A DNA stretch of 64,000 bases, taken from the NCBI GenBank assembly GCA_015063745.1, contig SVTO01000005.1, positions 6,990 through 70,989 of the forward strand. The letters run 5' to 3'. A program made the position numbers and the translations under genes. Of this stretch, positions 24,607 through 42,964 are shown one piece after another. Numbering within the stretch: position 1 is the first letter of the stretch; each line of letters starts with the position of its first letter. The notes beneath the pieces are model-generated. The model did no database searches, was not told the DNA's origin, and saw only the letters and a program-made list of their open reading frames with translations. This DNA is from Oscillospiraceae bacterium (lineage in GTDB: Bacteria; Bacillota; Clostridia; Oscillospirales; CAG-272).

Positions 24607-25689
24607 TTACCCGACGATTGCCAGAGGGGAGGCTCTGCGGGAACCGATATACACCGCTCCCACAGGACGAATCCCGTAAACGGTGCCGATGTACATATTG
24701 GATACCGCCGCAGTCAGCATACCGGAGGTGCACCAGGGAGACACGGCACCGTTTGTTCCGTTGGCACGTACTCTGTACCATACCCCGTCCCCGTCCGCCG
24801 GCACAATGTCGGGATACTGCAGGGACGTGCCCGTGTACAGAGCGGTGAAATTCACCCCGTCGGCAGAACGCTCCAGCGTATAATCCTTCACGGGAACCAC
24901 CGGATCCTCCACTGCCGCCCAGGTGACGGTTACAGGACTGCCCGCCAGCAATGCACCCGTGCGGATGTATGCCGGCGCAAGGGGAACGGAGCCGCTGCGG
25001 GAAACCGTCTGTACCGGCGTGGTGATCTGCAGGGTGGTGACATATTTGTAATACGCACTCCCCCACTCCGCCTCGTCGAAGGTGCGGTACACCAGAACCA
25101 TGTACCACTCATACCCCACCGTATCCGCCATGGTGTACGTGCACTGCAGCTTCTTTGTGTAGGAAAGCAGTACCGTTTCCGTGAAATCCGCTTCCCCCGG
25201 CGCACGGGTGTACAGAGCCAGCCGGTATATCCCGCCGAAATGGCCTTCTTCCAGAGGGGATTCGACGACGGATACCGTGTTTTCGCAGTCCGCATACAGC
25301 ACCGGTGCAAAGGAAATCACAGGTGCTGTGTCACAGTCGGCAAAGGACAGGGTGAATCCGGTAATGGATGAGCCGGACAGCGCCAGCTTGTTGACGGGGA
25401 TAATGGGCTTTACCTCCATTCGCCTCGGCCCGTCCGGCAGATAGGGGATACGGCAGACCATGGTATCCCAGTCGTCAAGGGTCTCAAAGGTGTATGCCGT
25501 ATCGTTGTAAATACACTGCAGCAGGGTCCCGGGATCCCCCACGGCAGGATCGTCGTAGGCACCGATAACGCACAGATACTCCTCCGCACGCAGGACTGCC
25601 ACTTCAAAACCGTTGTCGTTCAGCGTGTAATCCAAGGCCGTGGTCATGGTCAGACAATGCCTGTCCGTCCTTGCATGATCCAGAATCAT
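24607..25689 (-). CDS. phage tail fibre / host-recognition protein with FN3-like C-terminal module
   Basis: 360 aa; AGGAGG SD 7 nt upstream; segment PVTVTWAAVEDPVVPVKDYTLERSADGVNFTALYTGTSLQYPD...YRVRANG resembles fibronectin type III. Confidence 0.45.
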   Translation of the reverse strand: MILDHARTDRHCLTMTTALDYTLNDNGFEVAVLRAEEYLCVIGAYDDPAVGDPGTLLQCIYNDTAYTFETLDDWDTMVCRIPYLPDGPRRMEVKPIIPVNKLALSGSSITGFTLSFADCDTAPVISFAPVLYADCENTVSVVESPLEEGHFGGIYRLALYTRAPGEADFTETVLLSYTKKLQCTYTMADTVGYEWYMVLVYRTFDEAEWGSAYYKYVTTLQITTPVQTVSRSGSVPLAPAYIRTGALLAGSPVTVTWAAVEDPVVPVKDYTLERSADGVNFTALYTGTSLQYPDIVPADGDGVWYRVRANGTNGAVSPWCTSGMLTAAVSNMYIGTVYGIRPVGAVYIGSRRASPLAIVG

Positions 25690-25701
25690 CGCATTCCCTC
25701 C

Positions 25702-26418
25702 TTATCTGTCCGCCAGCAGCAGGAAAATTTCCCCTTCCGCCAGAGAATCGGGCAGCGTGTACCCGTAGCGGATGTTGCGTACCGCGGATGCACCGGTGGT
25801 GTCGTTTGCGGCCTGCAGGATGCCGGTCATGACCCCGCCGGATTTCGGCAGAAGGTCATCGGCCGTCAGTCCGCCCACCGCACCGCTGCTTATGGCATAG
25901 GATACATTGTCCAGACTGTCCGCCGCACCCACCACGGGTCCGCAGAGGGTTTTGTCCATGCGGGTATCGGTGATCATGGCTTCCGTTACCGCTCCCGCAT
26001 CGGCGGCAAGAGTAACCTTTGCCAGCACCAGATCCCATGCTTCGCCGTCTCTTCTCGGCAGGGATGTATCATCCTCGACGGATTCCAGAGTGAAATACCC
26101 GGCGGCGGGATGGAGTCTGAGGCAGACGGTGTAGGTGTGGTCGGGAGAGAGGGGCAGAGTGGCCGCTTCCTTCAGCCACGCCATATGCCCGAGAATCCAC
26201 GCACATCCGGGAGATACCTGCAGAGAGGTCCCGTTTCCGGGAGATACGGCAAAGGCACCATCACCGGGTCGGATGATGCCGTCCGCGTAGAAACAGCGCA
26301 TCATCTGTGCGAAAAAGGCCGCATCCACCGCTTTGTTGCCCCGGGGGAATCCGTCCACGGTTTCCACAACGGATGTGGAATCGAACATGCCCCCGTTTAC
26401 TTGAATGGTTGTGTTCAT
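25702..26418 (-). CDS. phage tail/baseplate-associated protein (fibre-like)
   Basis: 238 aa; N-terminus ..GGMFDST......DRGNKAVDAAFFAQMMRCFYADGI resembles the conserved N-termini of Firmicute phage fibre/upper-baseplate proteins. Confidence 0.4.
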   Translation of the reverse strand: MNTTIQVNGGMFDSTSVVETVDGFPRGNKAVDAAFFAQMMRCFYADGIIRPGDGAFAVSPGNGTSLQVSPGCAWILGHMAWLKEAATLPLSPDHTYTVCLRLHPAAGYFTLESVEDDTSLPRRDGEAWDLVLAKVTLAADAGAVTEAMITDTRMDKTLCGPVVGAADSLDNVSYAISSGAVGGLTADDLLPKSGGVMTGILQAANDTTGASAVRNIRYGYTLPDSLAEGEIFLLLADR

Positions 26419-26433
26419 AATAAAACCTCCGTA

Positions 26434-27474
26434 TTATTTGTTCAGTTTGTCGATCAGACGGCGTATATCCCGGATCTCGTCGCCGAAGAGGGGATACAGC
26501 TGTTCCACGCCGTTTTCGTATACAATATCCAGTCCCGTCAGCTGTGTATGGGCACGCACACCCAGTACATCGGAACGGATCTCGCAGATATCTCCCAGAC
26601 CGTATCCCGTACCGTACCGGGGCTGGGCATCCCCCTCCGCTGTACAGTCCAGACGGATAAGGGGCGTGTATTCCCGGAGTATCTGCAGGCCTCTGGCGGA
26701 AAGGGCGGCGAGGTAGGCATCTCTGTCGGCGAAATCCGCTTCCTTCAGATCCGCCGCCTTACGGTATATTTCCCGTATGTCATCCCCGTCCGCGATGTTT
26801 TCCGCCGTCACCACCGTACCGTCCCCGCCTTCTATGTAAATCCGGTTGTATACATTGCCGCATTCCTTCTCAAAGGTGAGCGAGGCAATATTCCCGAATT
26901 CCTCCGAAAAAACCGCCTTCTCCGCTTCTCCGTCCCCGTCAAAGGAACGGTCAATACCCCGGATCAGCCGGAAAACCCCACGCTGAGCAGTCCCGTCATA
27001 CGTCACCGAGAAGGACATACCGTAAGGCCTCAGCATTTCGTACAGCCATTCCCCGAGAGGCTCACGGCTGCCGGAAAAGGCTGCCTCCGTATCCATTATC
27101 GGCTGCTCGGGGTCAATATCCACGGGAAGATCTCCCGCCGTGTCTCTGACCGCTTCCAGTACCGCATCGGTCAGAGAACCCGTGTACGTCACATTTCTCG
27201 GAAGCAGCCGGTCGGAGAGCAGACATTCAAGCATCCGTCCCCGCAGCTCGATCCCGTCCCCCGTAACGGAAACATATTCGATCCGTCCGCAGTGCAGTCT
27301 GTCGCACAGATACACCGCCGCAGAAGCGATCTCCGCCACCGCGCTGTCGCATCCGGGGAAGACCACCGTAAAGGTGCCGCAGGAATAATACCGCAGGGAC
27401 CAGACCACGGAAACCATGGTGTCCAGAGGCGTATTCAGTACGGCAAAATTTCTGTCGAGAAAATAAATTTCCAT
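26434..27474 (-). CDS. Siphovirus Gp37-like tail/baseplate protein
   Basis: MEIYFLDRNFAVLN..D...S..W..RYY.CG.F N-terminus is characteristic of the ReqiPepy6 Gp37-like family. Confidence 0.55.
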   Translation of the reverse strand: MEIYFLDRNFAVLNTPLDTMVSVVWSLRYYSCGTFTVVFPGCDSAVAEIASAAVYLCDRLHCGRIEYVSVTGDGIELRGRMLECLLSDRLLPRNVTYTGSLTDAVLEAVRDTAGDLPVDIDPEQPIMDTEAAFSGSREPLGEWLYEMLRPYGMSFSVTYDGTAQRGVFRLIRGIDRSFDGDGEAEKAVFSEEFGNIASLTFEKECGNVYNRIYIEGGDGTVVTAENIADGDDIREIYRKAADLKEADFADRDAYLAALSARGLQILREYTPLIRLDCTAEGDAQPRYGTGYGLGDICEIRSDVLGVRAHTQLTGLDIVYENGVEQLYPLFGDEIRDIRRLIDKLNK

Positions 27475-27483
27475 ATTTCCTCC

Positions 27484-28359
27484 TTATAAACCGAAGTATA
27501 AGGGCGTGCAGTACAGGCTGACGGAGAGAAATTCCCCGCCGCTGTCCGCCGAAACGGTGATTTTGTTTTCGCCGGGTTCCAGCAGGAAGAAATCGCTGGT
27601 GCGGTCGAATACAAAATGTCTCTCGCCGTTCAGCAGTACATTTTTGCGGCGCGGACGTGTGTCGATCTCCGCCGTGTCTCCATCCTGCAGAACGGTGAGC
27701 AGACGTATGTACCTGTCCCCGCAGGCCAGAACCGGATTTTCCACCATCCCGCCGTCTGCTGTCAGTACCGCCGTCATCCCGCAGGCCGCATCCCCCGGAT
27801 TGTACACCTCGGTCGTGTCCGTACTGCGGAGATACCCCGTGGTCATGCCGGTTTCTTCCATGAAATTCAGCGGGAAGGCCATAAGGGGCACGGTCTGACG
27901 GAAGGAAAAGGACAATTCCTCGGCATCCCGGTAGAAGGGATCGGGGGCGATGAAGGTCAGACTTACCTGCAGGGGAGAGAACAGGGTATCCTTGGCCAGC
28001 TTGGGCGTGTCGTGGGGAATGACGGTGATCAGACGGGACACGCCGTGGATTCTGATCCGCATCTCGATTTCGGAAAGGGGGTTCATAAGCCTTATGATCC
28101 GGCGTCGGATGGCGTGTTCCTCCTCAGGGGATGCGGCGTTTACCTCAGCGTGAATGGCCAGATACCGCTCCCCGAAGCGCCTGCTCACCGGATGCCCGCC
28201 GGGAAGACCCGCATATGCCTTGGTCTCCACCGAAAGCGCCGTGATGCCGAATCCCTCCAACCCCTCCTCCAGAATGTGCAGATCCGCATCCGCCGAGGAA
28301 GAAGCCGTCAGCGTCACATCCTTCCCGGACAGGCGGATCTCATAATGTGTGTTTGTCAA
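27484..28359 (-). CDS. distal tail protein (Dit, Sipho_tail-like)
   Basis: 291 aa immediately after the tape measure gene; TTG start with AGGAGG SD. Confidence 0.5.
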   Translation of the reverse strand: MTNTHYEIRLSGKDVTLTASSSADADLHILEEGLEGFGITALSVETKAYAGLPGGHPVSRRFGERYLAIHAEVNAASPEEEHAIRRRIIRLMNPLSEIEMRIRIHGVSRLITVIPHDTPKLAKDTLFSPLQVSLTFIAPDPFYRDAEELSFSFRQTVPLMAFPLNFMEETGMTTGYLRSTDTTEVYNPGDAACGMTAVLTADGGMVENPVLACGDRYIRLLTVLQDGDTAEIDTRPRRKNVLLNGERHFVFDRTSDFFLLEPGENKITVSADSGGEFLSVSLYCTPLYFGL

Positions 28360-28370
28360 AATATACCTCC

Positions 28371-29156
28371 TTAAATACGCAGCAAGGCTTCGCTTTCCCT
28401 GCGGATGGCACGGGCGGTGGCGTAGGGGGAAGTGTCGTTTTCGCGCAGGTAGATATGCTGTACCACCTGTCCGCCCGTACCTGCCCCGCTTCCTGTATTG
28501 TCCGTCAGTACACTGCGCTGACCCACACCGGCCAGAGCCTCTTCAATATACCGGCTGCCGTCGAGAATACCTTCCGCAATCCCACGGGACAGCATGACCC
28601 CCACCTCATCCTTCATCAGCTTCGAGGGAGAGGAGATTTCGTATACCTTTTTCGTCTCCGCCAGGGTCTGGGCGGAAACCGAACGTACTGCGGCGATGAT
28701 GGCCCCCGCAGAAGCCATGATGCCGGATGCGATCCCTTCGCTGATGGACGCACCCACGGAAACCCATCCGCCGGAAAAGAGATTCCGTACCCTGTCGGCG
28801 GTGGCCTGGGCGATGTGTGTCAGGGAAGCGATCCGCTCGGTGAAGCCGGATGTGATGCCCGATGCTCCGTTTCCGCCCGCACCCTGCCAGTCGGCGGATG
28901 AAAAAGCGAGAACGGCACCATGGGCGGCAGATGCACTCTGCTCATACACTCTCGCGGTCATGGTTTCCATAGCGGAAATGACGGCGGAGATGACCAGCAG
29001 CATGCCCGCATCCACCCCCGCAGAAGCAACCGCGGTCTGTACACCGGCCTGCAGTCGGGAAGACAAAGCGGAAAGCTCTGTTTCCAGCGTGCCGATCTGT
29101 GCCGTAAACTGTTCCGTATCCAGAGCGGCTTCAATGATTACCGATCCGTCTGCCAT
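28371..29156 (-). CDS. tail tape measure protein (unusually short, 261 aa)
   Basis: Position between the chaperone-like genes and Dit; Ala/Gly/Ser-rich helical sequence with ..EISSPSKLMKDEVGVMLSRGIAEGI.., typical of the TMP core. Confidence 0.6.
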   Translation of the reverse strand: MADGSVIIEAALDTEQFTAQIGTLETELSALSSRLQAGVQTAVASAGVDAGMLLVISAVISAMETMTARVYEQSASAAHGAVLAFSSADWQGAGGNGASGITSGFTERIASLTHIAQATADRVRNLFSGGWVSVGASISEGIASGIMASAGAIIAAVRSVSAQTLAETKKVYEISSPSKLMKDEVGVMLSRGIAEGILDGSRYIEEALAGVGQRSVLTDNTGSGAGTGGQVVQHIYLRENDTSPYATARAIRRESEALLRI

Positions 29157-29731
29157 ATAGATTCCTCCGTTTCTTTGTTTGTTTTCTTGGTGTTTCTGAT
29201 GCGTACCGATGCTTTGGCACGCCGTAATTTTCTGCGCGTTTCCTCATCCTTGATCCCGCTTATGTCCATGCAGCGCAGGGCGGCGGTACGCATGAAGGGA
29301 CAGTCCGGGGGCAGGGCGGTCAGCAGGGCTAAGAATTTCCACCAGTGCAGCTCACATTGGGTCAGATCCATACGGTACACCTGCAGAAAAGCCCCGTAGA
29401 TCAGGTCCCCGTCCCATACAAAATCAAACACCCCGCCTTTCGGTGCATTGCCGGAGGACGGGGCATTTTCGACGGTATCCGGGGACATCTCTCCTCTGTA
29501 AAAGGCCAGTAAGGCATCAAAGAGGCGGTGCAGATCCACATCGGGCAGCCTGTCGCCGCAGTACAGCCACAGCCCCAGCTTCATCCGGGAGAGATCGTCC
29601 AGATCCTCATCCTTCGCCAGTTCCCCGAACAGGATTCCCGTTCTGTAATCGGTACGGATGGGTATTCTGACCCCGTCCACAAATACCGCATCCGGCAGGG
29701 GATGGGTCAGAACGGAAGTGCGTCCCTTCAT
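29138..29731 (-). CDS. phage Gp15-family protein (tail assembly-associated)
   Basis: 197 aa; ..VRIPIRTDYRTGILF......D...R..L.L.L.Y resembles the Phage_Gp15 family. Confidence 0.5.
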   Translation of the reverse strand: MKGRTSVLTHPLPDAVFVDGVRIPIRTDYRTGILFGELAKDEDLDDLSRMKLGLWLYCGDRLPDVDLHRLFDALLAFYRGEMSPDTVENAPSSGNAPKGGVFDFVWDGDLIYGAFLQVYRMDLTQCELHWWKFLALLTALPPDCPFMRTAALRCMDISGIKDEETRRKLRRAKASVRIRNTKKTNKETEESIWQTDR

Positions 29732-30117
29732 GCGCCTGCTCCGTCCGCAATGGGAGAACGGCTCAGATGGATCGCCAGCGCACGTTCACGGAAACGCTGT
29801 TCCGCTTCCATACGGATGTCCACCATGGCCTGCATCTGGGCTTCCACAAAGGTGACGAAGGAGACAAAGGCTCTGGTGTGGCTTTCCGCACTTTTCAGAA
29901 GCCCGCAGATCTCCCCGGCGGATTCCTCGTCGAAGAGTACATTGAAGAAACGGCGGATGTCCTCGCACTGAGCGGCGATCTTTCCCGCAGGCGTAAGATT
30001 TTCCTCCGCCGGTTTTCTTTCCATGTGGATCAGCGCCTCCGTCAGGCGGAACATACAGCCTTCCTCGCTGATGTCAAACCAGTAATCCGTGTTGTTGTAA
30101 TGCCAGTTTTTGTTCAT
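29728..30117 (-). CDS. phage protein, tail assembly chaperone position
   Basis: 129-aa ORF between the major tail and TMP genes; ATGA overlap with the next gene. Confidence 0.4.
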   Translation of the reverse strand: MNKNWHYNNTDYWFDISEEGCMFRLTEALIHMERKPAEENLTPAGKIAAQCEDIRRFFNVLFDEESAGEICGLLKSAESHTRAFVSFVTFVEAQMQAMVDIRMEAEQRFRERALAIHLSRSPIADGAGA

Positions 30118-30190
30118 TCCATATCCTTTCCCGGCCGGGGTCTGCGGGAGAAACCCTGAAAAGCTTCTCCCGTATCCCGTACCGTATCGT

Positions 30191-30391
30191 TTAAGAAACC
30201 GTGTTTCGTTTTTCGATATCCGATTCCCACTTTTCCAGCCAGAGAAAGATCTTGGACAGGATGGACTTGAGCAGTCTGCAGAGCTGCAGGGCGAAATCCA
30301 CCCACTTCATGACCTTCCCGGCCGTGGGATTTTTATACTGTACTTCCGTTTCCTCCGCATCGGAGAAAATCATGTTGTTTTCTTCGTTCAT
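30191..30391 (-). CDS. small phage protein (66 aa)
   Basis: ATG 30391 lies 6 nt after GGAGG and 1 nt after the major tail stop: MNEENNMIFSDAEETEVQYKNP... The longer ORF-track version (to 30565) overlaps the major tail gene. Confidence 0.4.
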   Translation of the reverse strand: MNEENNMIFSDAEETEVQYKNPTAGKVMKWVDFALQLCRLLKSILSKIFLWLEKWESDIEKRNTVS

Positions 30392-30392
30392 C

Positions 30393-30881
30393 TTACGCCT
30401 CCGTGAAGGTGGAGGTGGACAGAACAAAGGTACCGGATACGCCGTCGGAAACGGACTTGAGCGTACCGGTGTAGAGCAGAGTATCCGTACCTGCGCCGCA
30501 TTCGTCGGGGATGACGGAATAGGTGCGGCGGCGTGCTCTGCAGATGCCGGATGTACCGGTTTCATCGAACAGATCCACGGTACAGATCTCCACCTGCGCC
30601 TCCTCTCCCGTGCGTTCGTAATCGGTAATGGCGCGGAGCTTCTCGATCACGGGATTGCTGCTGTATACCTCAAATTCGTAGTCGACGGTGGGCGCATAGC
30701 CGGTAACGTCCGTACGCTTGGAAGCCTCGTGGATGTAGCGTCTCTGGTAGCTTACCGCGTTCTTGGATTCGGTAAAATCCGTGAACCCTTCGCCGATGAG
30801 ACTCCATACAGGTGCGCCGGCGGTACCGATATTCATGTAATGCCGTCTGGCGGCACGGTTGACAATGGATGTTTCAGCCAT
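30393..30881 (-). CDS. major tail protein
   Basis: 162 aa; ..RHYMNIGT....W.LIGEGFTD..ES.N......RYI....K.TDVTGY resembles phi13/TP901-type major tail proteins; position fits. Confidence 0.6.
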   Translation of the reverse strand: MAETSIVNRAARRHYMNIGTAGAPVWSLIGEGFTDFTESKNAVSYQRRYIHEASKRTDVTGYAPTVDYEFEVYSSNPVIEKLRAITDYERTGEEAQVEICTVDLFDETGTSGICRARRRTYSVIPDECGAGTDTLLYTGTLKSVSDGVSGTFVLSTSTFTEA

Positions 30882-30896
30882 AATGATTCCTTTCTG

Positions 30897-31313
30897 TTAT
30901 CGTTTGGTGTCGTAAACATTGTATTCCAGTACAAAACCCGCCCGGTATTCCTCCGTTCCGTCCTCCCATACTGCGGATTTTGCCGGCAGCGTGGTCTGGG
31001 TGATCTTTGTGAATACCCTGCCGTTTTCATCCGGCGGCAGATGGTCTGCAAACCATTCGGTCAGGACATCGAACCGGCCCAGAACCGCCAGCTTGCCGAT
31101 GGGAGAGGTGCCGTCCGTGTACATGGATACCGCAAAGGGAAAACGGGCGGTGTAGGAGCCGTCTATGTATTTGCGGATCTGACGGCCGGCGGAAAGGGCG
31201 GTAATCACCCCACCCGGTACATTCCCCTCCGTTTCCGGCAGAAAATCCGACGGACGGTCTTCCCAGGTGTTGAGTAAAGTACACAATGCTTTGAGTATGC
31301 TTTTTTCTTCCAT
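30897..31313 (-). CDS. tail completion/terminator-like protein (minor capsid family)
   Basis: 138-aa ORF immediately upstream of the major tail gene. Confidence 0.45.
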   Translation of the reverse strand: MEEKSILKALCTLLNTWEDRPSDFLPETEGNVPGGVITALSAGRQIRKYIDGSYTARFPFAVSMYTDGTSPIGKLAVLGRFDVLTEWFADHLPPDENGRVFTKITQTTLPAKSAVWEDGTEEYRAGFVLEYNVYDTKR

Positions 31314-31319
31314 AAATGT

Positions 31320-31658
31320 TTATACCTCGTTTTTCGTCACAGCCCGGGCAGCCGTTTCACACCACAGCGCCAGATCCGCCGCCTTTGCCGCCTCGAACCA
31401 TCCGGCCTGCGCCAGAGGATGAACGGAGCGGGAAAAGGGACGCTTGGCGTAGTAGCATTTTCTGGCATGATCCGCCGTCCAGATTACCCCGGTGTCCGTC
31501 ACCGCACCGGAGCGGAAAAGCTCTCCCGTGCGGTAGGGAACATAGGGGGTACAGGACGTCAGAACCGCCTGACGAAGGGCCTGAGCGGCACTTTCCGCCC
31601 GGTTTGTGAGGGATGTCATGGTTCTCCCCGGCGAGAAATGTAGTCGGAAATGTACCAT
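31320..31658 (-). CDS. head-tail joining protein (Minor_capsid_2 / HK97 gp10-like)
   Basis: 112 aa; AAGGAGG SD 5 nt upstream of ATG 31658; ..VPYRTGELFRSG.. motif. Confidence 0.45.
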   Translation of the reverse strand: MVHFRLHFSPGRTMTSLTNRAESAAQALRQAVLTSCTPYVPYRTGELFRSGAVTDTGVIWTADHARKCYYAKRPFSRSVHPLAQAGWFEAAKAADLALWCETAARAVTKNEV

Positions 31659-31668
31659 AAGAACCTCC

Positions 31669-32013
31669 TTATTTCACACATTCCAGCCGATAGTGTTCCA
31701 CTCTGTCACTGCCGGTAAGAAAGGGCGTGATCTTCAGAATCTTCCAGCCATCCCGTTCGTTTTCGTCCGGATACATTCTGTCTCCGGGTACAAATCCGGC
31801 ATCGGAAAAAGCGCAGATACGGCCGGAGGCGTTTGTCAGCTTACTGAACCGCGGGAAGAAATAGACGACGGTACGGCTCTGATGATGCCCCTTTTCCGAC
31901 GCGGCGTATTCGGTGAACAGAACGACCTTATCCGCCGTGAATATGCGGTAAGCCGGGCCGAAGTTTTTGTCGTAGCCGAAAAGATGCTTGAGAATGATCC
32001 GATTCCTTTTCAT
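31669..32013 (-). CDS. head closure protein (Minor_capsid_1-like)
   Basis: 114-aa ORF in the connector module. Confidence 0.4.
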   Translation of the reverse strand: MKRNRIILKHLFGYDKNFGPAYRIFTADKVVLFTEYAASEKGHHQSRTVVYFFPRFSKLTNASGRICAFSDAGFVPGDRMYPDENERDGWKILKITPFLTGSDRVEHYRLECVK

Positions 32014-32022
32014 GATTTCACC

Positions 32023-32373
32023 TCAGATCCATTGGTTCAGCAGTCCCGCGTGGGAGAGAACCATCAGGGCTTCGGGACTGACCTCCATGCCGAGAACGGT
32101 AAGGGCAGGGGTACGGTATTCCGCACGGTAGTCCCCGATGGTTTCGGCAGCCAGTCCCGCACTGTCAGAGCATCCGGCGGTTTTGTCCGTCTGCAGACAA
32201 ACGGCACAGCGGATGGCATCGGCCTTCTGCGGATAATCCGCCGGGTGACGGGGCAGCAGAAGACAATGGATCACCGCCTGTGCTGCCTTGCGGAACTTTG
32301 CAAAATCCTCTTCGGAAAGCGCACCGCCGTATTCGTTTTTGTAATACGTATAATCCGTCACGGCGTCACCCAT
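32023..32373 (-). CDS. head-tail connector (gp6-like DNA packaging) protein
   Basis: 116-aa ORF directly after the coat gene (TAATG overlap). Confidence 0.45.
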   Translation of the reverse strand: MGDAVTDYTYYKNEYGGALSEEDFAKFRKAAQAVIHCLLLPRHPADYPQKADAIRCAVCLQTDKTAGCSDSAGLAAETIGDYRAEYRTPALTVLGMEVSPEALMVLSHAGLLNQWI

Positions 32374-33494
32374 TAACCCAGATAACGTACAGCCAGCTCG
32401 GGATAGATGGGCATAAAGCTGTAGAGCACATCCATGGAGAGAATGTCCTTCTTGCGGTTGATGTCGTAGCCGCGTACCACACGGAGGGAGATGCCGTTAT
32501 GGGTGGTCACGTAGGATTCCACACCGGCGGGAGTAGCCAGAGGACGGGATACGAAGGCAAAGGCATGGGGATGGAATACCAGGTTGGCTTCATGGCTGGG
32601 AATGAGGGTAACCGTACTTTCCAGAATAGCCAGATCCGGGATTTCAAACAGCATCAGGGAGAGGGTGTTGCCGGAGAAGGACACATCGTCCGCCACGACC
32701 ACATTGCGGGTCACGCCGTCCTTGCAGGCGCAGGACAGAATGTCACCGGGATGCACACTCTTGCCGGAAGCGGAATCGCAGGACAGGGTGATCATGTTGT
32801 CCACAATGGAACGGACGGAAATGTCGGCAGTCACTTCGGACAGGGAACCGGATTCGTGGCGGCAGACTGCCTGGCTCATGTAGTTTTCCACGCCGAATAC
32901 CTTGCCGATGGAACCGGTGCGCAGAGCCTTGGAGGAACCGCACTGATCGGCGTGCAGAAGGGCGGGGATCTGCTTCAGCTGACAGGCGGTACGGGGACTC
33001 CATACGGCGCATCTGCCTTCGGTGGGTACGCCCATGCTGTCCAGTACATAGGAAGCTTCGGCGAAATCGCTCAGGTCGGAGGGAGTGGAACCGGGGGTAC
33101 CTGCCACATTGGCAACAGCAGCATACATGGCCAGACCGTCCTTGTTGATCTGCTGTGCCAGAGCCGCGGCGGCAGGTTCCAGAAACAGTCGGGTCATATC
33201 GTCAAAGCTGCAGGCACTTTCCAGAGCGGATACTTCCACATCCACGGTGGCAATGGTGTCCAGCTTGACTTCCACGGTGTCTTCCACAACGGACTGGGGA
33301 GCGATGGATTCGTCGTTGAAGAAATGCTTGGCTTCCAGCTTGACGGGGCGGCGGATGACAACGGTGTCACCCTTCTTTGCGCTGTTGTGGTCGCCCAGAT
33401 CCTTGTAGATCAGGTTGGGGAACACCAGGTTGTCCATCAGTCTGGGCAGGGCTTCTCTGGCGATCTGCTTGGCGGAAAAAATAGAACTATTCAT
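32373..33494 (-). CDS. major capsid protein (P22 coat-like family)
   Basis: 373 aa; N-terminus ..AKQIAREALPRL.DNLVFPNLIYKD......KKGDTV.IRRP and C-terminus ..RGYDINRKKDILSMDVLYSF resemble P22_CoatProtein-family coats. Confidence 0.7.
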   Translation of the reverse strand: MNSSIFSAKQIAREALPRLMDNLVFPNLIYKDLGDHNSAKKGDTVVIRRPVKLEAKHFFNDESIAPQSVVEDTVEVKLDTIATVDVEVSALESACSFDDMTRLFLEPAAAALAQQINKDGLAMYAAVANVAGTPGSTPSDLSDFAEASYVLDSMGVPTEGRCAVWSPRTACQLKQIPALLHADQCGSSKALRTGSIGKVFGVENYMSQAVCRHESGSLSEVTADISVRSIVDNMITLSCDSASGKSVHPGDILSCACKDGVTRNVVVADDVSFSGNTLSLMLFEIPDLAILESTVTLIPSHEANLVFHPHAFAFVSRPLATPAGVESYVTTHNGISLRVVRGYDINRKKDILSMDVLYSFMPIYPELAVRYLG

Positions 33495-33532
33495 AAAAAA
33501 TCTCCTTTTCTTTTAAAAAATTACGTTTGGGA

Positions 33533-33949
33533 TCAGAAACGGCGGACGAAGCGGTAGTATTCCGCATCGGTCATGCTGTCCGGATCGGCGAAGGGTGTGC
33601 CGTGGGAAAGACCGGTGGCGGTTTTCTCTCCCTCGGCGGTGCTGTGGAACAGGTAGGGATCACTGATGCGGAGCTTGTCAAGCTGTTCCTTCAGTCCGCA
33701 GATGCCCTCTTCCCCATAGGTAATGGCGGACATATCCAGCACTTTGGCGGCAAGGGCAGGGTTTTTCGCACCCATGCGGGCCAGCGCATATTTGGTTTCA
33801 TGCTCGATCTGCATTCTGGCAAGGTCGGCGGTGTGTTTTTCTTCCATCTGACGGATCTGCTCGCGCAGGGTATCCGCTTCGGTGGGCACCTTTTCTTCCG
33901 CCGGGGGAAGTTCGGTTTCGGGGGTGTTTGTCATTTTGGTTTCATCCAT
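33533..33949 (-). CDS. capsid scaffolding protein (GP20-like)
   Basis: ~138-aa charged helical protein between portal and coat; AAGGAG SD upstream of ATG 33949 (the ORF track starts at 33976). Confidence 0.5.
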   Translation of the reverse strand: MDETKMTNTPETELPPAEEKVPTEADTLREQIRQMEEKHTADLARMQIEHETKYALARMGAKNPALAAKVLDMSAITYGEEGICGLKEQLDKLRISDPYLFHSTAEGEKTATGLSHGTPFADPDSMTDAEYYRFVRRF

Positions 33950-33985
33950 GTGCAAAATTCTCCTTTTCGTGGGCATCCGTCGGGT

Positions 33986-35356
33986 TTACGCACCGATATG
34001 CCATTTTTGTCTGTATTCTTCCTGCGTCAGAAGGCCCGCTTCCACCTCCCGCAGATCCCGGCTTCTTTCGGATTCGGAATCCACGAAATAGCTGTCGTCA
34101 TACCGTATGTGTACAGCGGACATGCTGTTCATGGGCAGGCCGAGAACGAATTCGCCCAGCCACAGTACCGGACGGATCACGGCACGCAGGAAAGCGGTCA
34201 TGTTCTGCTGATGCTTGCTCAGATTCTGGCGCATATCCTGTCTCTCTCCCATGTACTGGGTGGCGGTCAGCTGCGCCTTGCCCTGTACGCCGGAGAAGAG
34301 ATAATGCCTTGTCCCGAACCCGCAGCGGAAGGACAGGTAGTCAAGCTGTGCCTGTAGCGCATCGCGGTTTTCCTCGGAACGGAGGCTGGGATTGTGTTCG
34401 GTGATCATGGGCGTATCCGCAATATCCCCGTCGCCGATGGTCACGAACAGCTGCTGCGCCACATCGTCCGGGGTGTACAGATTGCCGTTGTCGTCCCGGT
34501 TCACGAGGGACTGGTTGATGAACACCTTTTTGCCGCCCAGCTTCAGGTCACGGCAGAAATTGTTGAACGCCAGATCCACACCCTTGAGACAGTCGATGGC
34601 ATCGGCAAAAATCGACTGACCCAGTCCGCATCCCTCGTCCACGGCGTTGTGGATATTGGGCGTCAGGATGCTGAAGAAGGGGAAGGGACAGCCGGTGCGG
34701 ATCTCCTCGGGCGGCATCCCCGGACGGCGGATTTCGGTGAGGGAACCGTCCACCTCGCCGAAGTATCGGTTGCGGATCACATAACCGTCCTCTTCCTTGG
34801 TGTGGATCTCCGCATAGAGGATCGTCTCGCCCCTGTTCCGGATTTCGGAAATAAAGGCCGCCTCCGTGATCCTGCCTTCTTCTGCGGAGATGGGGAGAAT
34901 GTGTCCCGCATCCACAAAATCGAAGGAGAGTGTCAGGGGTATTCCGGCGGCTTCGGTCAGATTCGTGCATCCCTTGGGCAGATCCCTGACACGGAGCAGA
35001 CAGGCACCGCTGCCCAGCGCAAAGGCCTTTTCCACCAGATGGTTGCATCTGCGCCAGAAATCCGTGTTGTCCAGTAAGATACCGACCCACTTTTCGGCGG
35101 CGGGATCATCGAGCTGCAGGTAGGTTTTGTCGTTGAACAGCAGGGATGCCCAGTCCTCGCACACTTTTTTGGCCATGTGCAGACGGTACATTTCCCGTTT
35201 TACCGGACGGCCGAATGCGGCGTTTTCCCAGTATTCGTGGAAGCGGTGCTCCTTCCCCTGCCACCAGCTCTGCCAGAGATCGATCATGCGGTAGATTCCC
35301 GTACCCGCCGTGCATCCGTACTGCTGACCGATCAGGTCTAAAATTTCGTTTTGCAT
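33986..35356 (-). CDS. portal protein (SPP1 Gp6-like)
   Basis: 456 aa after the large terminase; ..W..WW.G...FH.Y........R....L.MAKKVCEDWASLL.N. is typical of SPP1-type portals. Confidence 0.8.
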   Translation of the reverse strand: MQNEILDLIGQQYGCTAGTGIYRMIDLWQSWWQGKEHRFHEYWENAAFGRPVKREMYRLHMAKKVCEDWASLLFNDKTYLQLDDPAAEKWVGILLDNTDFWRRCNHLVEKAFALGSGACLLRVRDLPKGCTNLTEAAGIPLTLSFDFVDAGHILPISAEEGRITEAAFISEIRNRGETILYAEIHTKEEDGYVIRNRYFGEVDGSLTEIRRPGMPPEEIRTGCPFPFFSILTPNIHNAVDEGCGLGQSIFADAIDCLKGVDLAFNNFCRDLKLGGKKVFINQSLVNRDDNGNLYTPDDVAQQLFVTIGDGDIADTPMITEHNPSLRSEENRDALQAQLDYLSFRCGFGTRHYLFSGVQGKAQLTATQYMGERQDMRQNLSKHQQNMTAFLRAVIRPVLWLGEFVLGLPMNSMSAVHIRYDDSYFVDSESERSRDLREVEAGLLTQEEYRQKWHIGA

Positions 35357-35383
35357 AAATGTTTCCTTTCCAAAGAATTGTAA

Positions 35384-36694
35384 TCAGACTTTGCCCATAT
35401 ACCGCTCCACGGCATATTCCATAGCATCCAGAATGTCTATGTCCGAGGTAAAGTCATCCTTGCGCCGGTCCGCACCTTCCGTGTCATCCCATACCGCTTC
35501 GGCCAGACCGGCAGCCAGACGGGGACAGTCCTCCGTGAGATGGAACCGTCCCGCCGTCATCAGGCCGTTGATAAAGGCGATACGGTCGGCAATGGGACGC
35601 TTGGCGCAGTCGGTGATGATCACACCCTCCCCGTGGGGAACAGCCCGGCGGAGTCCGTTGATCAGATACTGGGCTTCGCTGTCGCAAAAAACGTAGCGGA
35701 TGGGCAGGCGGGGGAATTTGCTGCGCAGTCCGGCCAGAAAGGAGAGAAACTCCCTGTTGATGCGTCCGGGATCAATATCCCCCTTGTCCCCCTGCACCGT
35801 ATGCTCTCCGATGGCAATGACACCGCCGGACAGCGGAAAACCCATGGCGGCGAATACGGTTTTGGAGCGGTTTCCGCCGAAGTCCACGCCGATGTTGCAG
35901 AATTTCATGGGCGGCAGACCGGAGAGGGGCAGAATGAATTTCTCCGGTGCATCGGCGAAGGTGCGGTAGATCAGTCCTTCCGCGGCACAGCGCAGACCGA
36001 GTATGTCCCGGCGGTACCAGACGGAGGACTTGTCGTACTGCGCCTCGATTTCGGCAAGCCTGTCCGGCGTGATCACGGGGTTGTCCCGGATGGTAAAATG
36101 GGCGTAATTGCAGAAACCGGGATTCCCGTCGGCGGTATAGGGGTCGATATACTGCCGGTAGATGGAAGCGGAAGGGGATGTGGGATTCAAGTCCCAGAAG
36201 ATTTTCCGGCGGCGGGCGGCGAGGGTACGGTTGAAGGCCTCTTTGATGAAGCTGTCGTGATGGTGGTTGATCTCGGTGGCGATCCACATTCCGTAGGAAT
36301 TGCCGCGGATCCGTTTGCAGGCATCCGCATTTTTGCCGCCGGCGAAGATCACCGCCTTTTCACCGCTTTTCGTCTGAATACGCAGACATTCGTTATCCTT
36401 ATACCGTCCCCATGCGCACCGTCCGCGGAAGATCCGCTCAAGACCCAGACCGTTGCAGTCTCCCAGATTGAGTTTCGCATTGCCGATGGTGGCACCGGTT
36501 GCCAGATGCAGCCTGTCGGGGGCATCCTCCAGCAGAGCGGCGAAGACAAACACATTGTCCACTGTCTTCCCGGCACGCACCGCACCTTCGGCAATGTTCA
36601 CGGTACATTCCATGGCACGCCGCATATAGTCCCGGTGCTTATCCCCGAAACAGAACGGCGGCATATCCGTGTACCCTGCGCACACATCCTCCAT
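35384..36694 (-). CDS. terminase large subunit (PBSX family)
   Basis: 436 aa; Walker A-like EGAVRAGKT; ..IATEINHH.. ; C-terminal nuclease ..GVDFGGNRS......DILDAMEYA. Confidence 0.85.
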   Translation of the reverse strand: MEDVCAGYTDMPPFCFGDKHRDYMRRAMECTVNIAEGAVRAGKTVDNVFVFAALLEDAPDRLHLATGATIGNAKLNLGDCNGLGLERIFRGRCAWGRYKDNECLRIQTKSGEKAVIFAGGKNADACKRIRGNSYGMWIATEINHHHDSFIKEAFNRTLAARRRKIFWDLNPTSPSASIYRQYIDPYTADGNPGFCNYAHFTIRDNPVITPDRLAEIEAQYDKSSVWYRRDILGLRCAAEGLIYRTFADAPEKFILPLSGLPPMKFCNIGVDFGGNRSKTVFAAMGFPLSGGVIAIGEHTVQGDKGDIDPGRINREFLSFLAGLRSKFPRLPIRYVFCDSEAQYLINGLRRAVPHGEGVIITDCAKRPIADRIAFINGLMTAGRFHLTEDCPRLAAGLAEAVWDDTEGADRRKDDFTSDIDILDAMEYAVERYMGKV

Positions 36695-36722
36695 TTTTTC
36701 ACATCCTTTCCCATGATTTCAG

Positions 36723-37109
36723 TTACCCATCCTGCTCCTGACGGAATATATTTGCCCGCAGAGCCATCATTTCCGGACTGGCTTCGGCGGCGGCAAAGCC
36801 CAGCGCGGGATTGGCACGGACATCCTTCCACAGTTCAAAATAGAGCTTGATGGCCTGAATATTCCCGTCCCGCGCCAGGGTCAGCAGCTGCTGCCATATC
36901 TCCGCGGCATATATTCCCGCATATTCCCTGGCCAGCTGCACGACCGCGGATCCGAACGCCGCATCCCGCAGCCACGCAAGCATATCCGTTTCGGATACAT
37001 CGGTCTGTGAGAGGGCGCCCGCGATCTGTTCCCCTGCCGTCAGTCCGCCGAAGCTGTTTTTGACGACGGCATTGGCGGTGTCGATTTGTTTTTCCGTCGT
37101 ATCGCTCAC
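36723..37109 (-). CDS. putative terminase small subunit / HTH DNA-packaging protein (start uncertain)
   Basis: C-terminus ..LARDGNIQAIKLYFELW.. is typical of small terminase/phBC6A51-type HTH proteins. GTG 37109 abuts the GGAGG with no spacer. The upstream ATG 37262 would run through a terminator and a promoter. Confidence 0.45.
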   Translation of the reverse strand: MSDTTEKQIDTANAVVKNSFGGLTAGEQIAGALSQTDVSETDMLAWLRDAAFGSAVVQLAREYAGIYAAEIWQQLLTLARDGNIQAIKLYFELWKDVRANPALGFAAAEASPEMMALRANIFRQEQDG

Positions 37110-37125
37110 CTCCTTTCGTGAAACC

Positions 37126-37155
37126 AGTATACCACAGCGAACATTTGTTTGTCGT
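37126..37155 (-). promoter_or_regulatory. candidate late promoter (extended -10, weak -35)
   Basis: Minus strand acGACA-18 nt-TGgTATACT, ~15 nt upstream of the GAAAGGAGG SD of the small-terminase-like gene. Confidence 0.4.
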
Positions 37156-37235
37156 CCCGTGATTATGGCGGAGGAATGGGGAGAAAGTTGCAGAAAAGTG
37201 GCAGAAAAGGGATGGAAAAATCCACATAATCCCGT

Positions 37236-37282
37236 AAAAACAAAAAACAGCAGGGGATGCATGGTAAAACATCCGCTGCTGT
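37236..37282 (-). terminator. intrinsic terminator between the regulator and the structural operon
   Basis: Minus strand ACAGCAG(C)GGAT-loop-ATCC(C)CTGCTGT followed by TTTTTTGTTTTT. Confidence 0.65.
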
Positions 37283-37307
37283 GGGGGAAAGGGGAGGATG
37301 GGAGGGA

Positions 37308-37696
37308 TCAGGTATTTCTGCCGAAGAGTGCGAGGGTAAAGCGTTCATAGGCTCTGCGTCGGATGCGGTAGAAGGAGCTGCGTTCGACGTGGAGTTCTTC
37401 GCAGAGGTCATCGATACTGACGCGGGAAGATTTAGCGGCGTAAGCGGTAAGGATGGCTTTTTCATCGGGGTCGAGGGTAGCGAGGGCAAACTCAAGGGCA
37501 CGCACTTTTTTGGCAAGTTTCGCACGATTCTCCGCGGCGGTTTCGTTTTCTTCTTCCCAGTCATTCCGCAGAGCGTTTCTGAGGTAGGGTAATTCCTTCA
37601 GCAGAGAGACCGCCTGTTTCTGGAGGGAGCTATTCTGATCTGTTTTTCGGGTTTTCAGGTTTTTTTTGTTACGTTTGTTCTAATGGTGGGACTCAT
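37308..37696 (-). CDS. ArpU/RinA-like (sigma region-4-like) phage late transcriptional activator, interrupted at an A8 tract
   Basis: ATG 37696 (AAAGGA SD at 9 nt) opens a 13-codon frame that ends at TGA just after A8 (37660-37667). The -1 frame is open from there to 37308. It encodes ..LQKQAVSLLKELPYLRNALRN...LDPDEKAILTAYAAKSSRVSIDDLCEELHVERSSFYRIRRRAYERF. Its only canonical in-frame start is GTG 37505 (65 aa). Confidence 0.55.
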
Positions 37697-37740
37697 CTGC
37701 CATTATCCTTTCTTTTGTATTCTTTTCTTTTTTATACTAC

Positions 37741-37754
37741 AGAACATATGTTCT
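37741..37754. promoter_or_regulatory. LexA (Cheo/SOS) box 2, overlapping the predicted transcription start
   Basis: AGAACATATGTTCT, a perfect palindrome with the Firmicute core GAAC-N4-GTTC. Confidence 0.6.
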
Positions 37755-37762
37755 TGTTCTAT

Positions 37763-37791
37763 AGTATAGCACATGGGGATTCTTTTGTCAA
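37763..37791 (-). promoter_or_regulatory. sigma-A promoter of the phage-cluster regulator gene
   Basis: Minus strand TTGACA-17 nt-TATACT. Confidence 0.65.
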
Positions 37792-37797
37792 TACAAA

Positions 37798-37811
37798 AGA
37801 ACAAATGTTCC
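37798..37811. promoter_or_regulatory. LexA (Cheo/SOS) box 1, 6 nt upstream of the -35
   Basis: Minus strand GGAACATTTGTTCT (GAAC-N4-GTTC). Confidence 0.55.
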
Positions 37812-37827
37812 TTTTGGTTTTTCTACG

Positions 37828-37985
37828 GATGGGAGGACTAAATCGCTATTTTCTTTTTTGTCCTTGGCGGACGGATATTCTTTTACTACTCGATGAGTCG
37901 TGCTATCGTACGTTTTTGGTGTCCTGTGCGGACGGCACTTAGAGAGGCCTGCCAAAGCGAGGCCCCTCTAAGAACTCCCCCGCTT
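37828..37985. repeat. left arm of a ~158-bp inverted repeat
   Basis: By hand alignment ~93% identical to the reverse complement of 38549-38706. Contains an internal hairpin TTAGAGAGGCC..GGCCCCTCTAA and the direct repeat GTCCnnnGCGGACGG x2. Confidence 0.85.
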
Positions 37986-38548
37986 TATTAAGAGCTACGT
38001 TGGTACTGTATTGGTTGTTGGATTGGTCAAAGTAGTGGAGGATGCAAATCAGCGCTGACCGCGGTAGGGGTGCATTAGTGGAGGCATACTGTTGGGATAA
38101 GGTATGTATTAGCCGTGTACAGTGATGTGGACTGGGTGCGGTCTCATCCGTGCTAACCGCGCGAAGACTGAATGGCAGTCCTAAGACATGGCGGTCAGCC
38201 GGAATTTTTAATGCACCCAACCTTGTACTGTAGGCGAACCCACTCTTAGTTTGCACAACCTGTCAGCGGTCAAACTCCCCTATTCATCCCGCGGTCAGCA
38301 CAGATAATCCTTTACTCCACTAATTAACCCAACAAACCCACACCCAACAACCTCTCCCTTTACACCAAGCGGTAGCGTAATCCTTCCTGCACGGCACTTC
38401 GTTCTGTGCACAGACCCACTATCAAACCCAACCAACCGTCAACGGTATACCAAAACCCCTGCACCCTTCGGCGGTTAGCCATAATTGAAAAACGAGATTC
38501 CCAAACCCAAAGAAACAGCAAACCCGAACCAAGAAAACCCTTGCACCT

Positions 38549-38706
38549 AAGCGGGGGAGTTCTTAGAGGGGCCTCGCGTCTGCAGGCCTCTCTAAGTGCC
38601 GTCCGCACAGGACACCAAAAACAAACGACAGCACGACACAAAGAGTAGTAAAAAAATATCCGTCCGCCAAGGACAAAAAAGAAAATAGCGGTTTAGTCCA
38701 CCCCAA
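38549..38706. repeat. right arm of a ~158-bp inverted repeat
   Basis: Reverse complement matches 37828-37985. The 563-bp spacer holds nested imperfect palindromes and 6 copies of GCTGACCGC/GCGGTCAGC. Confidence 0.85.
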
Positions 38707-38744
38707 CTGTGGAGAGAAAAATAAAACGAACCCCCGTAACCCCC

Positions 38745-38773
38745 TTGCAAACCCAATAAAAAAATGGTATACT
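38745..38773 (+). promoter_or_regulatory. sigma-A promoter of the kdgK-like/hydrolase unit
   Basis: TTGCAA-17 nt-(TGg)TATACT. Confidence 0.55.
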
Positions 38774-38826
38774 AAAACCAACCTGAATAAAGACCAACCC
38801 CAAGAAAACAACAGGAGAAAAAATAT

Positions 38827-39858: not shown

Positions 39859-39880
39859 ACGGCAGAAAACGGAGGAAAAT

Positions 39881-42811: not shown

Positions 42812-42964
42812 AAAACAGCCCGCTGCCGGCCATTTCAGCCGGCAGTGAACACAAAGTATATTTATAAAAACCATCGGTATCCCGTTTCACGGAGACAGGA
42901 TGCCGATGGTTTTCATATTTCCCAAAAAATTCCGCAATTTTCCGGAATATTCAAAAAATCCGCA

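Follow-up and report, generated by a model that had tools for sequence, protein, structure and literature searches.

A GTA-like structural gene cluster in a core chromosomal region of an uncultured gut Clostridia bacterium, with LexA-type boxes at its predicted activator and late-operon promoters

The structural cluster and its chromosomal setting

The stretch of DNA analysed here, 64 kb long and referred to as the window, carries on its minus strand a phage-like gene cluster that extends over ~13 kb (~24.6-37.8 kb) when the regulator gene and the predicted promoters are included. Its genes, and an element inserted next to it, are the following.

24607..37262, minus strand: structural operon, from terS to the tail genes (Pfam and PHROGs)
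37308..37696, minus strand: putative late activator gene of the Ltr type, 129 codons once repaired (14.9 kDa, pI 9.7), frameshifted here
37831..38703, no strand assigned: high-copy inverted-repeat element with 155-nt terminal inverted repeats, abutting the distal box and outside the switch

The head genes of the operon comprise terS, terL, an SPP1-type portal, a scaffold, a P22-type coat protein and adaptor/head-completion genes, and its tail genes encode a probable tail tube protein, chaperones, a tape measure, Dit, a Tal-like protein and two more virion proteins. The tape measure, with 261 aa, matches only the C-terminal ~200 residues of the 1100-1500-aa tape measures of phages. No recognisable lysis genes were found in the cluster, and neither the cluster nor any other part of the 64-kb window contains repressor, integrase or replication genes, which confirms, for the cluster and for the full window, an earlier note on this DNA according to which no phage repressor gene is present. 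A tRNA scan for an attachment-site signature returned none, and no SOS genes were found in the 64-kb window.

The cluster is flanked by host genes, a radical-SAM gene (23553-24539) and pfkB (38827-39858), and elsewhere the window consists of core chromosome: infA-rpsM-rpsK-rpsD-rpoA-rplQ, genes of the shikimate pathway, an amino-acid ABC transporter, groES/EL, mgtE, asd, sepF-divIVA, lspA and rluD. One open reading frame, 39698-42874 on the minus strand, was rejected as a host gene, with a dN/dS of 1.7 and a position that makes it the shadow of a GH106-like gene on the plus strand. In a different species with 81-85% DNA identity (L007), the cluster is found at the corresponding chromosomal position, and further loci (L010-L013) share its position with the window on the pfkB side. 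All 14 genes compared with L007, from terS to Dit, have dN/dS values between 0.06 and 0.30, the short tape measure standing at 0.18. The dS values of the cluster are mostly 0.6-1.2, with one outlier at 2.3, and resemble the value for the neighbouring host gene, pfkB (1.19).

GTA particles package and transfer random fragments of host DNA that are too small to hold the whole cluster encoding them. All the genomic hallmarks of such elements are found here: a phage-like structural cluster in the chromosome, devoid of modules for replication, integration and lysogeny, which is inherited vertically and kept under purifying selection. As far as its genes can tell, the cluster is a maintained, vertically inherited and structural-only cluster of the siphovirus type, and it is GTA-like because it occupies a core-chromosome locus, keeps its synteny across species, is under purifying selection and lacks repressor, integrase and replication genes.

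The inserted inverted-repeat element lies 20 bp from the distal LexA-type box described below. It has a read depth 10-80x that of its flanks, and is absent from the orthologous site in relatives; searches of plasmids, viral contigs and other loci gave no match for it. Its 155-nt inverted repeats account for the extreme predicted fold of the long non-coding region located 5' of the first promoter, P1. This region was rejected as a known RNA, as Rfam returned nothing for the whole window at the gathering threshold or for positions 37200-39000 at a permissive threshold.

The P1 promoter and its two LexA-type boxes

Upstream of the regulator gene, the predicted promoter P1 is bracketed by two palindromic boxes.

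37798..37811, minus strand: distal LexA-type box, GGAACATTTGTTCT, 6 nt 5' of the P1 -35
37763..37791, minus strand: predicted promoter P1, with -35 TTGACA at 37791-37786, a 17-nt spacer and -10 TATACT at 37768-37763
37741..37754, minus strand: proximal LexA-type box, AGAACATATGTTCT, 8 nt 3' of the P1 -10

P1 is the top sigma-70-type match of its region, with 11/12 consensus positions in addition to the TG dinucleotide that ends the 17-nt spacer and makes TATACT an extended -10. The minus-strand order read by the earlier note between 37811 and 37741, GGAACATTTGTTCT-6-TTGACA-17-TATACT-8-AGAACATATGTTCT, is exact, and two further observations made there also hold: both boxes contain the core GAAC-N4-GTTC, of which they are the only two copies in the 64-kb window, and the downstream box is a perfect 14-bp palindrome placed over the predicted transcription start, from about +2 to +15. 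The core of the distal box, GAACATTTGTTC, is identical to the validated LexA site of B. subtilis ybaK. Flanking a promoter that is itself predicted from sequence, the two boxes are placed where a repressor would be expected to block RNA polymerase.

The whole 64-kb window was scanned with a symmetrised log-odds matrix (PWM) trained on 32 B. subtilis LexA sites with experimental validation (Cornish et al. 2014, PMC3998124, Table S1); the median score of these sites is 17.2 bits. The use of a B. subtilis-derived matrix, which may not match the host's own SOS motif, is justified by the phylum-level conservation reported in the literature: the LexA motif is well defined throughout the Firmicutes, and LexA of B. 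subtilis has been shown to bind predicted gut-metagenome sites (PMC3998124). On this B. subtilis matrix, the proximal box ranks first in the window with 22.3 bits and exceeds all 32 training sites, the distal box ranks second with 20.4 bits (94th percentile among validated sites), and a third box, located at the promoter of the structural operon, ranks third with 18.1 bits (66th percentile); the best position outside the cluster promoters, at rank 4, scores 11.6 bits. None of 300 simulated composition-matched windows held a site of at least 20.4 bits, and 4% held one of at least 18.1 bits, which makes the third box, considered alone, modestly significant. Two exact GAAC-N4-GTTC matches per window arise in 31/100 shuffles and are hence common; it is their clustering that is unusual. 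Pairs of sites scoring 16.5 bits or more and lying no further than 100 bp apart were found in 0/1000 simulated windows, and the same count was obtained for three such sites within 700 bp.

Conservation was assessed by aligning the 230 nt 5' of the regulator start codon from seven distinct lineages, the relatives being drawn from gut and rumen metagenome assemblies and from one GTDB genome ('MAG: Clostridia bacterium RGIG4573', from roe-deer rectum). Across the seven lineages, the background columns have a mean pairwise identity of 0.29, the DNA being mostly scrambled, against which the P1 -35 reaches 1.00, the extended -10 reaches 0.88, and the ribosome-binding site with the start codon reaches 0.96. 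In the proximal box, the arms are invariant in 7/7 lineages (pairwise identity 1.00), around a 4-nt centre with an identity of 0.50 that reads ATAT, AGAT, GGAT, AACC or ATTT depending on the lineage. The distal box, again with variable centres, is kept in 6/7 lineages and is missing in the most diverged one (L008). The distance between the two boxes ranges from 56 to 60 bp among lineages, and helical phasing is therefore unconstrained; a model of phasing or looping between the two boxes was rejected, given that such spacing follows no strict phase.

The regulator gene and its frameshift

37660..37667, minus strand: A8 homopolymer, the frameshift site, followed by a premature TGA at 37657-37655

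The regulator frame at 37308-37696, which the earlier note had taken to be open, is interrupted: translation from the ATG at 37696 meets a TGA after 13 codons, just past the A8 run, and the remainder of the gene lies in the -1 frame, with its stop at 37310-37308. The full protein is regained by a run of nine A, or by a slip into -1 on A_AAA_AAA, an in-phase heptamer that the stop follows one codon later. The regulators of relatives, which are 67-85% identical and 129-131 aa long with a pI of 8.95-9.5, are all intact; aligning the regulator to one metagenome contig collection yielded no relatives. The relatives read M-S-T-T-I-R-T-N-x-T-K-D-T-M-K-T-R-K-T, where the window reads M-S-P-T-I-R-T-N-V-T-K-K and, after the shift of frame, N-L-K-T-R-K-T.

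The A8 run recurs in L001 and L002, which are independent JGI assemblies, and in contigs from four other faecal metagenomes (X1-X3 and X5), and since it is identical in independent assemblies and samples, it is not an assembly error. In a strain from another study that is 95-99% identical (X10), one extra base and an A-to-G change give AAAAGAAAA, which is in frame. The window strain thus has a 1-nt deletion, of recent origin and in a homopolymer prone to mutation. The result is most simply a null or phase-off allele, and some low-level expression of the regulator could still arise from slippage or -1 frameshifting at ACAAAAAAAACCTGA. The structural genes remain intact despite the frameshift.

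The Ltr superfamily of late activators comprises RinA, ArpU, LtrA (sigma70_r4), LtrB (DUF1492) and LtrC (PMC3753634, PMC3152322). The regulator resembles its members in being a small basic protein of ~15 kDa (14.9 kDa and pI 9.7 here), encoded directly 5' of terS and separated from the terS promoter of a single late operon by a terminator and direct repeats. None of its matches to family models passes a curated cutoff: the match to the ArpU family TIGR01637 (E 7e-8, 32.8 bits) falls below the threshold of 43.1, and those to RinA (16.8 bits, cutoff 31.9), DUF1492 (E 8e-4, 20.0 bits, cutoff 21.5), sigma70-ECF and PHROG 36/248 (transcriptional regulator/activator) are also sub-threshold. E-values down to 7e-8 indicate relatedness, and the regulator does not appear to be a member of any one named Ltr family. 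Its AlphaFold model (AF2, pLDDT 80.5) is all-helical, and the PDB neighbours of this model are mostly sigma-factor region 4 domains, with TM-scores of 0.66-0.78 and rmsd values of 2.2-3.1 Å at weak E-values, of which the best is 0.18. The resemblance resides in the C-terminal half of the model; sigma-factor region 4 is the -35-binding domain.

The P2 promoter, the third box and the direct repeats

The interval between the regulator gene and terS contains a terminator, a set of direct repeats and a second predicted promoter, P2 (PterS).

37236..37281, minus strand: intrinsic terminator, CAGCAGCGGATG ... CATCCCCTGCTG and T-run, 3' of the regulator gene
37180..37209, minus strand: direct repeats with an 11-nt period, CTTTTCTGCc ACTTTTCTGCa ACTTTCTCC, candidate activator-binding site
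37126..37155, minus strand: predicted promoter P2 (PterS), with -35 ACGACA at 37155-37150, an 18-nt spacer and a TG-extended -10 TATACT at 37131-37126
37137..37152, minus strand: third LexA-type box, GCGAACATTTGTTTGT, spanning the P2 -35 and spacer

A hairpin with a T-run occurs at the matching place in the window and in L004, L015 and L018, and a different hairpin occupies it in L007. The direct repeats, kept in relatives, occur once in the window, where chance predicts 0 occurrences, and their position and form are those described for the binding repeats of Ltr proteins (PMC3753634). Upstream repeats of this kind are characteristic of PterS promoters that depend on an activator. A second locus with the repeat pair, such as lysis genes, was sought and not found elsewhere in the window, and the 77 matches obtained in metagenomes are all unrelated. 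The P2 -35, ACGACA, is weak, and the block GGGAYGACAAACAAATGTTCnnnnTGnTATACT is present in 6/6 aligned lineages.

The third box went unmentioned in the earlier note. Its core, CAAACAAATGTTCG, reads GAACATTTGTTT on the plus strand, which is identical to the validated LexA site of B. subtilis dnaE and has the GAAC-N4-GTTT form of the C. difficile lexA, recA and ruvC operators (PMC4234289). It is conserved in 6/6 lineages, the sole internal change being located in the centre, in L008. Significance on the basis of a pattern match alone was rejected, as matches to GAAC-N4-GTTC with one mismatch occur in the window at chance level (34 seen versus 26 expected). The third box was retained because of its PWM rank, its position in the promoter and its conservation, including in distant relatives; promoter function or activator binding could partly account for this position and conservation.

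All three boxes have the form of Firmicute LexA operators (GAAC-N4-GTTC or CGAACRNRYGTTYC) with scores like those of validated sites, they lie where promoter or start occlusion is expected at the predicted P1 and P2, and their arms are more conserved than their centres. Sequence statistics and the comparison of relatives lend good support to their identity as LexA operators, and the earlier description of the two P1 boxes as LexA boxes of the Firmicute type is backed by their PWM ranks 1 and 2, their placement and their conserved arms.

Recurrence of the boxes in a wider family

A TerL scan of viral contigs returned a group of 59-72%-identical relatives on contigs of ~5-14 kb and a group of at most 56% identity located mostly on phage-sized contigs of 20-80 kb. 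In the closer group, nearly all loci with enough upstream sequence have LexA-type sites of 16-22 bits 5' of terL, the exception being L033, in which no site of at least 15 bits was found. The arrangement of these sites varies: a perfect GAAC-N4-GTTC lies in the spacer of the terS promoter in L032 and L035, the terS-promoter site reads AAAC...GTTC in L029 and L030, and in L024 a perfect box is relocated 3' of the -10. L023 has GAAC...GTTT together with two boxes at its own regulator (ltr) promoter, one in the spacer and one at +1, an arrangement unlike that at P1. In ~45 phage-sized relatives, the 2.5 kb 5' of terL contain no such sites save two weak ones (16.0 and 16.3 bits). The palindrome persists among family members despite drift, which fits the prediction for an operator under selection.

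Alternative explanations

Three other explanations of the boxes were weighed. The palindromes could be chance products of an AT-rich promoter region, and two exact matches per 64 kb are found in 31/100 shuffles; the clustering of the sites was reproduced in 0/1000 simulations, they hold ranks 1-3 of the window, their arms are conserved around variable centres, and they recur in the distant family and not in the phage relatives. Chance has next to no probability left and is effectively refuted. It is very unlikely that the boxes serve as operators of a repressor other than LexA, whether an unlinked Xre/CI-like protein or the cluster's own regulator. Such an assignment draws on the B. subtilis origin of the matrix, which may not be the host's SOS motif, and on the precedent of PBSX, the best-known Firmicute GTA-like element, which uses a dedicated repressor. 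However, the sites score at or above validated LexA sites, two of them share 12-mer cores with such sites, and GAAC-N4-GTTC is the LexA motif of the whole phylum; neither the cluster nor the surrounding 64 kb contains a repressor gene, and Ltr/sigma-region-4-like proteins bind direct repeats, not palindromes.

The cluster could also be a decaying prophage remnant, in which the boxes would be functionless relics and the frameshift the first visible step of decay. The fixation of the frameshift in at least six samples or assemblies, the short tape measure, the lack of lysis genes and the mobile element 20 bp from the distal box all speak in its favour, yet we hold it to be unlikely. Since the split from a different species, 14/14 compared structural genes have stayed intact with dN/dS values of 0.06-0.30, at the same chromosomal position and with dS values like that of the host gene alongside; the tape measure, short as it is, is also conserved (dN/dS 0.18). 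An intact regulator is found in every relative and in a strain that is nearly identical, and the operator arms are kept against a scrambled background. With the structural genes and the relatives' regulators intact and the arms conserved, decay, if any, is therefore recent and limited to the window strain.

A proposed two-tier circuit gated by LexA

We favour, with a probability of roughly 0.68, the reading that the core chromosome of this uncultured gut Clostridia bacterium hosts a domesticated GTA-like cluster whose expression is gated by LexA in two tiers. This two-tier reading builds on the features and their statistics, on conservation, gene content, synteny and selection, and from these it predicts LexA binding, a function for the activator, SOS inducibility and particle production. 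In undamaged cells, LexA would shut both P1 and P2; at P1, LexA bound to the proximal box would cover the start site, and LexA bound to the distal box would sit just 5' of the -35. DNA damage would lead to RecA-stimulated self-cleavage of LexA and to the derepression of P1, which would drive a monocistronic activator gene with its own terminator. As the activator accumulates, it would bind the direct repeats and recruit RNA polymerase to P2 with its weak -35, and P2, now free of LexA and bound by the activator, would fire the operon from terS to the tail genes. As LexA would repress the activator gene and also the operon that the activator switches on, the circuit would constitute a coherent feed-forward AND gate. 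Such a gate should respond only to sustained SOS and filter out brief pulses, which would be sensible for a programme that is likely lethal to the producer.

The earlier note had proposed host LexA as the direct and only switch of the cluster. Directness agrees with the LexA-type operators, as predicted from sequence; since such sites are found on both promoters, particle production is probably tied directly to DNA damage. Exclusiveness finds no support, in view of the third box at P2 and the activator step: the third box, the weak -35 and the direct repeats mean that control would involve at least LexA at two promoters and the activator, and there may be inputs beyond these two. In the window strain, the output of the circuit is probably off or strongly attenuated because the regulator is frameshifted by a 1-nt deletion in its A-run.

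Relation to known systems and significance

SOS control of prophages usually runs through the phage repressor. To our knowledge, direct repression by host LexA is documented for a few elements only, namely GIL01, SigN of pBS32 and CTXphi, and Firmicute GTA-like elements beyond PBSX are almost unstudied. In GIL01, a tectivirus of Bacillus thuringiensis and the nearest precedent, host LexA replaces the phage repressor and binds boxes at the early and the late (virion/lysis) promoters, the second of which is also dependent on an activator encoded by the phage; this results in delayed SOS-dependent late expression (PMC4551915, PMC6182141). The cluster shares with GIL01 the lack of a dedicated repressor, LexA-type boxes at both promoters, where the role of LexA is read from sequence, and an element-encoded activator. 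GIL01 differs in that it replicates as a linear plasmid, completes a full life cycle, needs a small co-repressor (gp7) and has an activator (gp6) that is a LexA homologue, whereas the cluster is chromosomal, non-replicating and of the siphovirus type, with an Ltr/sigma-region-4-like activator. Its logic appears to be GIL01-like, yet the cluster is not a member of the GIL01 type, that of autonomously replicating temperate phages, as it has no replication genes and is chromosomal. In phages, ltr expression depends on a cI-controlled early cascade (PMC3753634), unlike here, where the ltr gene has its own strong predicted promoter with LexA-type boxes and PterS has a box too. SigN (ZpdN) of the B. 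subtilis plasmid pBS32, a further precedent, is a sigma-like regulator of a cryptic-prophage-bearing element under LexA control: chromosomal LexA directly represses its promoter, and DNA damage derepresses it. SigN differs in being a full sigma factor with positive autoregulation, encoded on a plasmid element, whose regulon is largely devoid of prophage structural genes (PMC6751061).

PBSX of B. subtilis differs from the cluster in its size (~28 kb), its myovirus-like type and the lysis genes that it encodes. It retains a repressor of its own, Xre, along with Xpf, a late factor that is sigma-like. The likeness, which for the cluster is partly predicted, lies in its being a chromosomal, phage-derived and SOS-inducible particle producer, a GTA-like defective prophage (PMC7667829), and its control region has a LexA site at xkdA (Table S1, PMC3998124). 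The alphaproteobacterial RcGTA is, like the cluster, structural-only, of ~13-15 kb, short-tailed, vertically inherited and under purifying selection, and, as predicted for the cluster, it is subject to host regulators. It belongs to a different phylum and a different lineage of structural genes, and no direct LexA operators have been described on its GTA promoters. LexA reportedly influences RcGTA production, as Kuchinski et al. found in 2016. This effect of LexA is indirect and passes through cckA. GafA acts as the direct activator (PMC9638019).

Each ingredient of the cluster has precedents: phage-derived elements under direct LexA control, late activators of the Ltr type, and elements that are GTA-like. 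In the literature searched, we found no description of chromosomal, structural-only clusters in gut Clostridia with LexA operators on Ltr and terS promoters. A further and quite improbable possibility is that such clusters form an undescribed, vertically inherited and siphovirus-derived GTA-like family of gut and rumen Clostridia in which the lysogeny switch has been replaced by LexA at the Ltr and terS promoters, as an AND gate, and in which the A-tract at codons 11-13 adds an on/off or low-level gate in the window strain. If this were true, the A-tract gate would confine a lethal and altruistic particle programme to a tiny fraction of SOS-induced cells.

The frameshift at the strain level provides a natural on/off pair for experiments. 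If confirmed, the two-tier control would make this family an example, from gut Clostridia that are abundant and uncultured, of host control over a domesticated phage cluster through LexA operators placed on both the activator gene and the late operon. The combination of LexA boxes, ltr and terS would then constitute a predictor, readable from sequence, of DNA-damage-inducible particle producers in gut metagenomes, with relevance to horizontal gene transfer and cell lysis triggered by antibiotics or diet in the gut.

A mobile-like element beside the distal LexA box

An inserted element lies in the spacer between the regulator gene and the host gene pfkB:

37831-38703, 873 bp, inserted element with terminal inverted repeats (155 nt, 92% complementary)

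Inner inverted repeats are nested within it (38048-38083 / 38289-38330), each arm carries terminator-like hairpins facing inward, and the GCTGACCGC motif is present as three repeats and one inverted copy. In four faecal metagenomes, reads cover it 10-80x as deeply as its flanks, and its edges are contig breakpoints. The element was not found in the relatives' orthologous pfkB-promoter spacer, and nothing in Rfam, Pfam, plasmids or viral contigs matches it. Altogether, it appears to be a high-copy MITE-like mobile element. The insertion point is 20 bp from the distal LexA box (the LexA-type site upstream of the regulator promoter), on the side away from that promoter, and both divergent promoters are left undisturbed.

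Gene calls and the start of terS

The annotated terS start (ATG 37262) falls within the regulator's terminator (window 37106-37262), and alignment with terS homologues begins only at about residue 48. A strong RBS is found in the conserved leader CACGAAAGGAGGTGAGCGATACGACGGAAAAACAAA ahead of terS, and the GTG abutting this leader (37109-37107) is the only conserved in-frame canonical start. The putative activator repeat occurs once in the window, and a scan of metagenomes with it gave no related hits.

The genome has a GC content of 53%, and long shadow ORFs opposite real genes are common, as revealed by dN/dS >1 and codon-usage scoring. The minus-strand 1058-aa ORF at 39698-42874 was rejected as such a shadow over a real plus-strand GH106-like gene (39821-42811).

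Tail and lysis functions

The tail genes include the following:

28371-29156, tape-measure protein, 261 aa

Its similarity to normal tape measures, which are 1100-1500 aa long, is confined to their C-terminal part, and the protein is kept under purifying selection (dN/dS 0.18) in L007, a different species with a related cluster at the same chromosomal position. Its size and conservation imply that the cluster's tail is very short, as is likewise the case in known GTAs. The cluster (24607-37262) and the DNA adjoining it contain no recognisable holin or endolysin. Any release of particles would depend on lysis functions whose genes lie elsewhere or have diverged beyond detection.

Wiring and context in other family members

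In the related cluster of contigs L024/L025, TerL is 71% identical, and the ltr regulator gene is absent from the 1 kb upstream of terS. In its place are four LexA-type sites (15.6-20.4 bits, positions 270-580), one of which falls within a divergent promoter (TTGACAAACAAATGTTCTTATGGTATAAT); the ORF driven by that promoter is small, cysteine-rich and Zn-ribbon-like. The same LexA-type operator is thus wired differently here.

In a further contig, L023 (positions 1510-2460), the gene directly next to the regulator promoter is not pfkB but one for a PHP-domain protein. In the window, the PHP-domain gene lies about 6 kb past the cluster's other end:

17862-18638, PHP-domain gene

The chromosomal contexts of the cluster family therefore differ or are rearranged between lineages.
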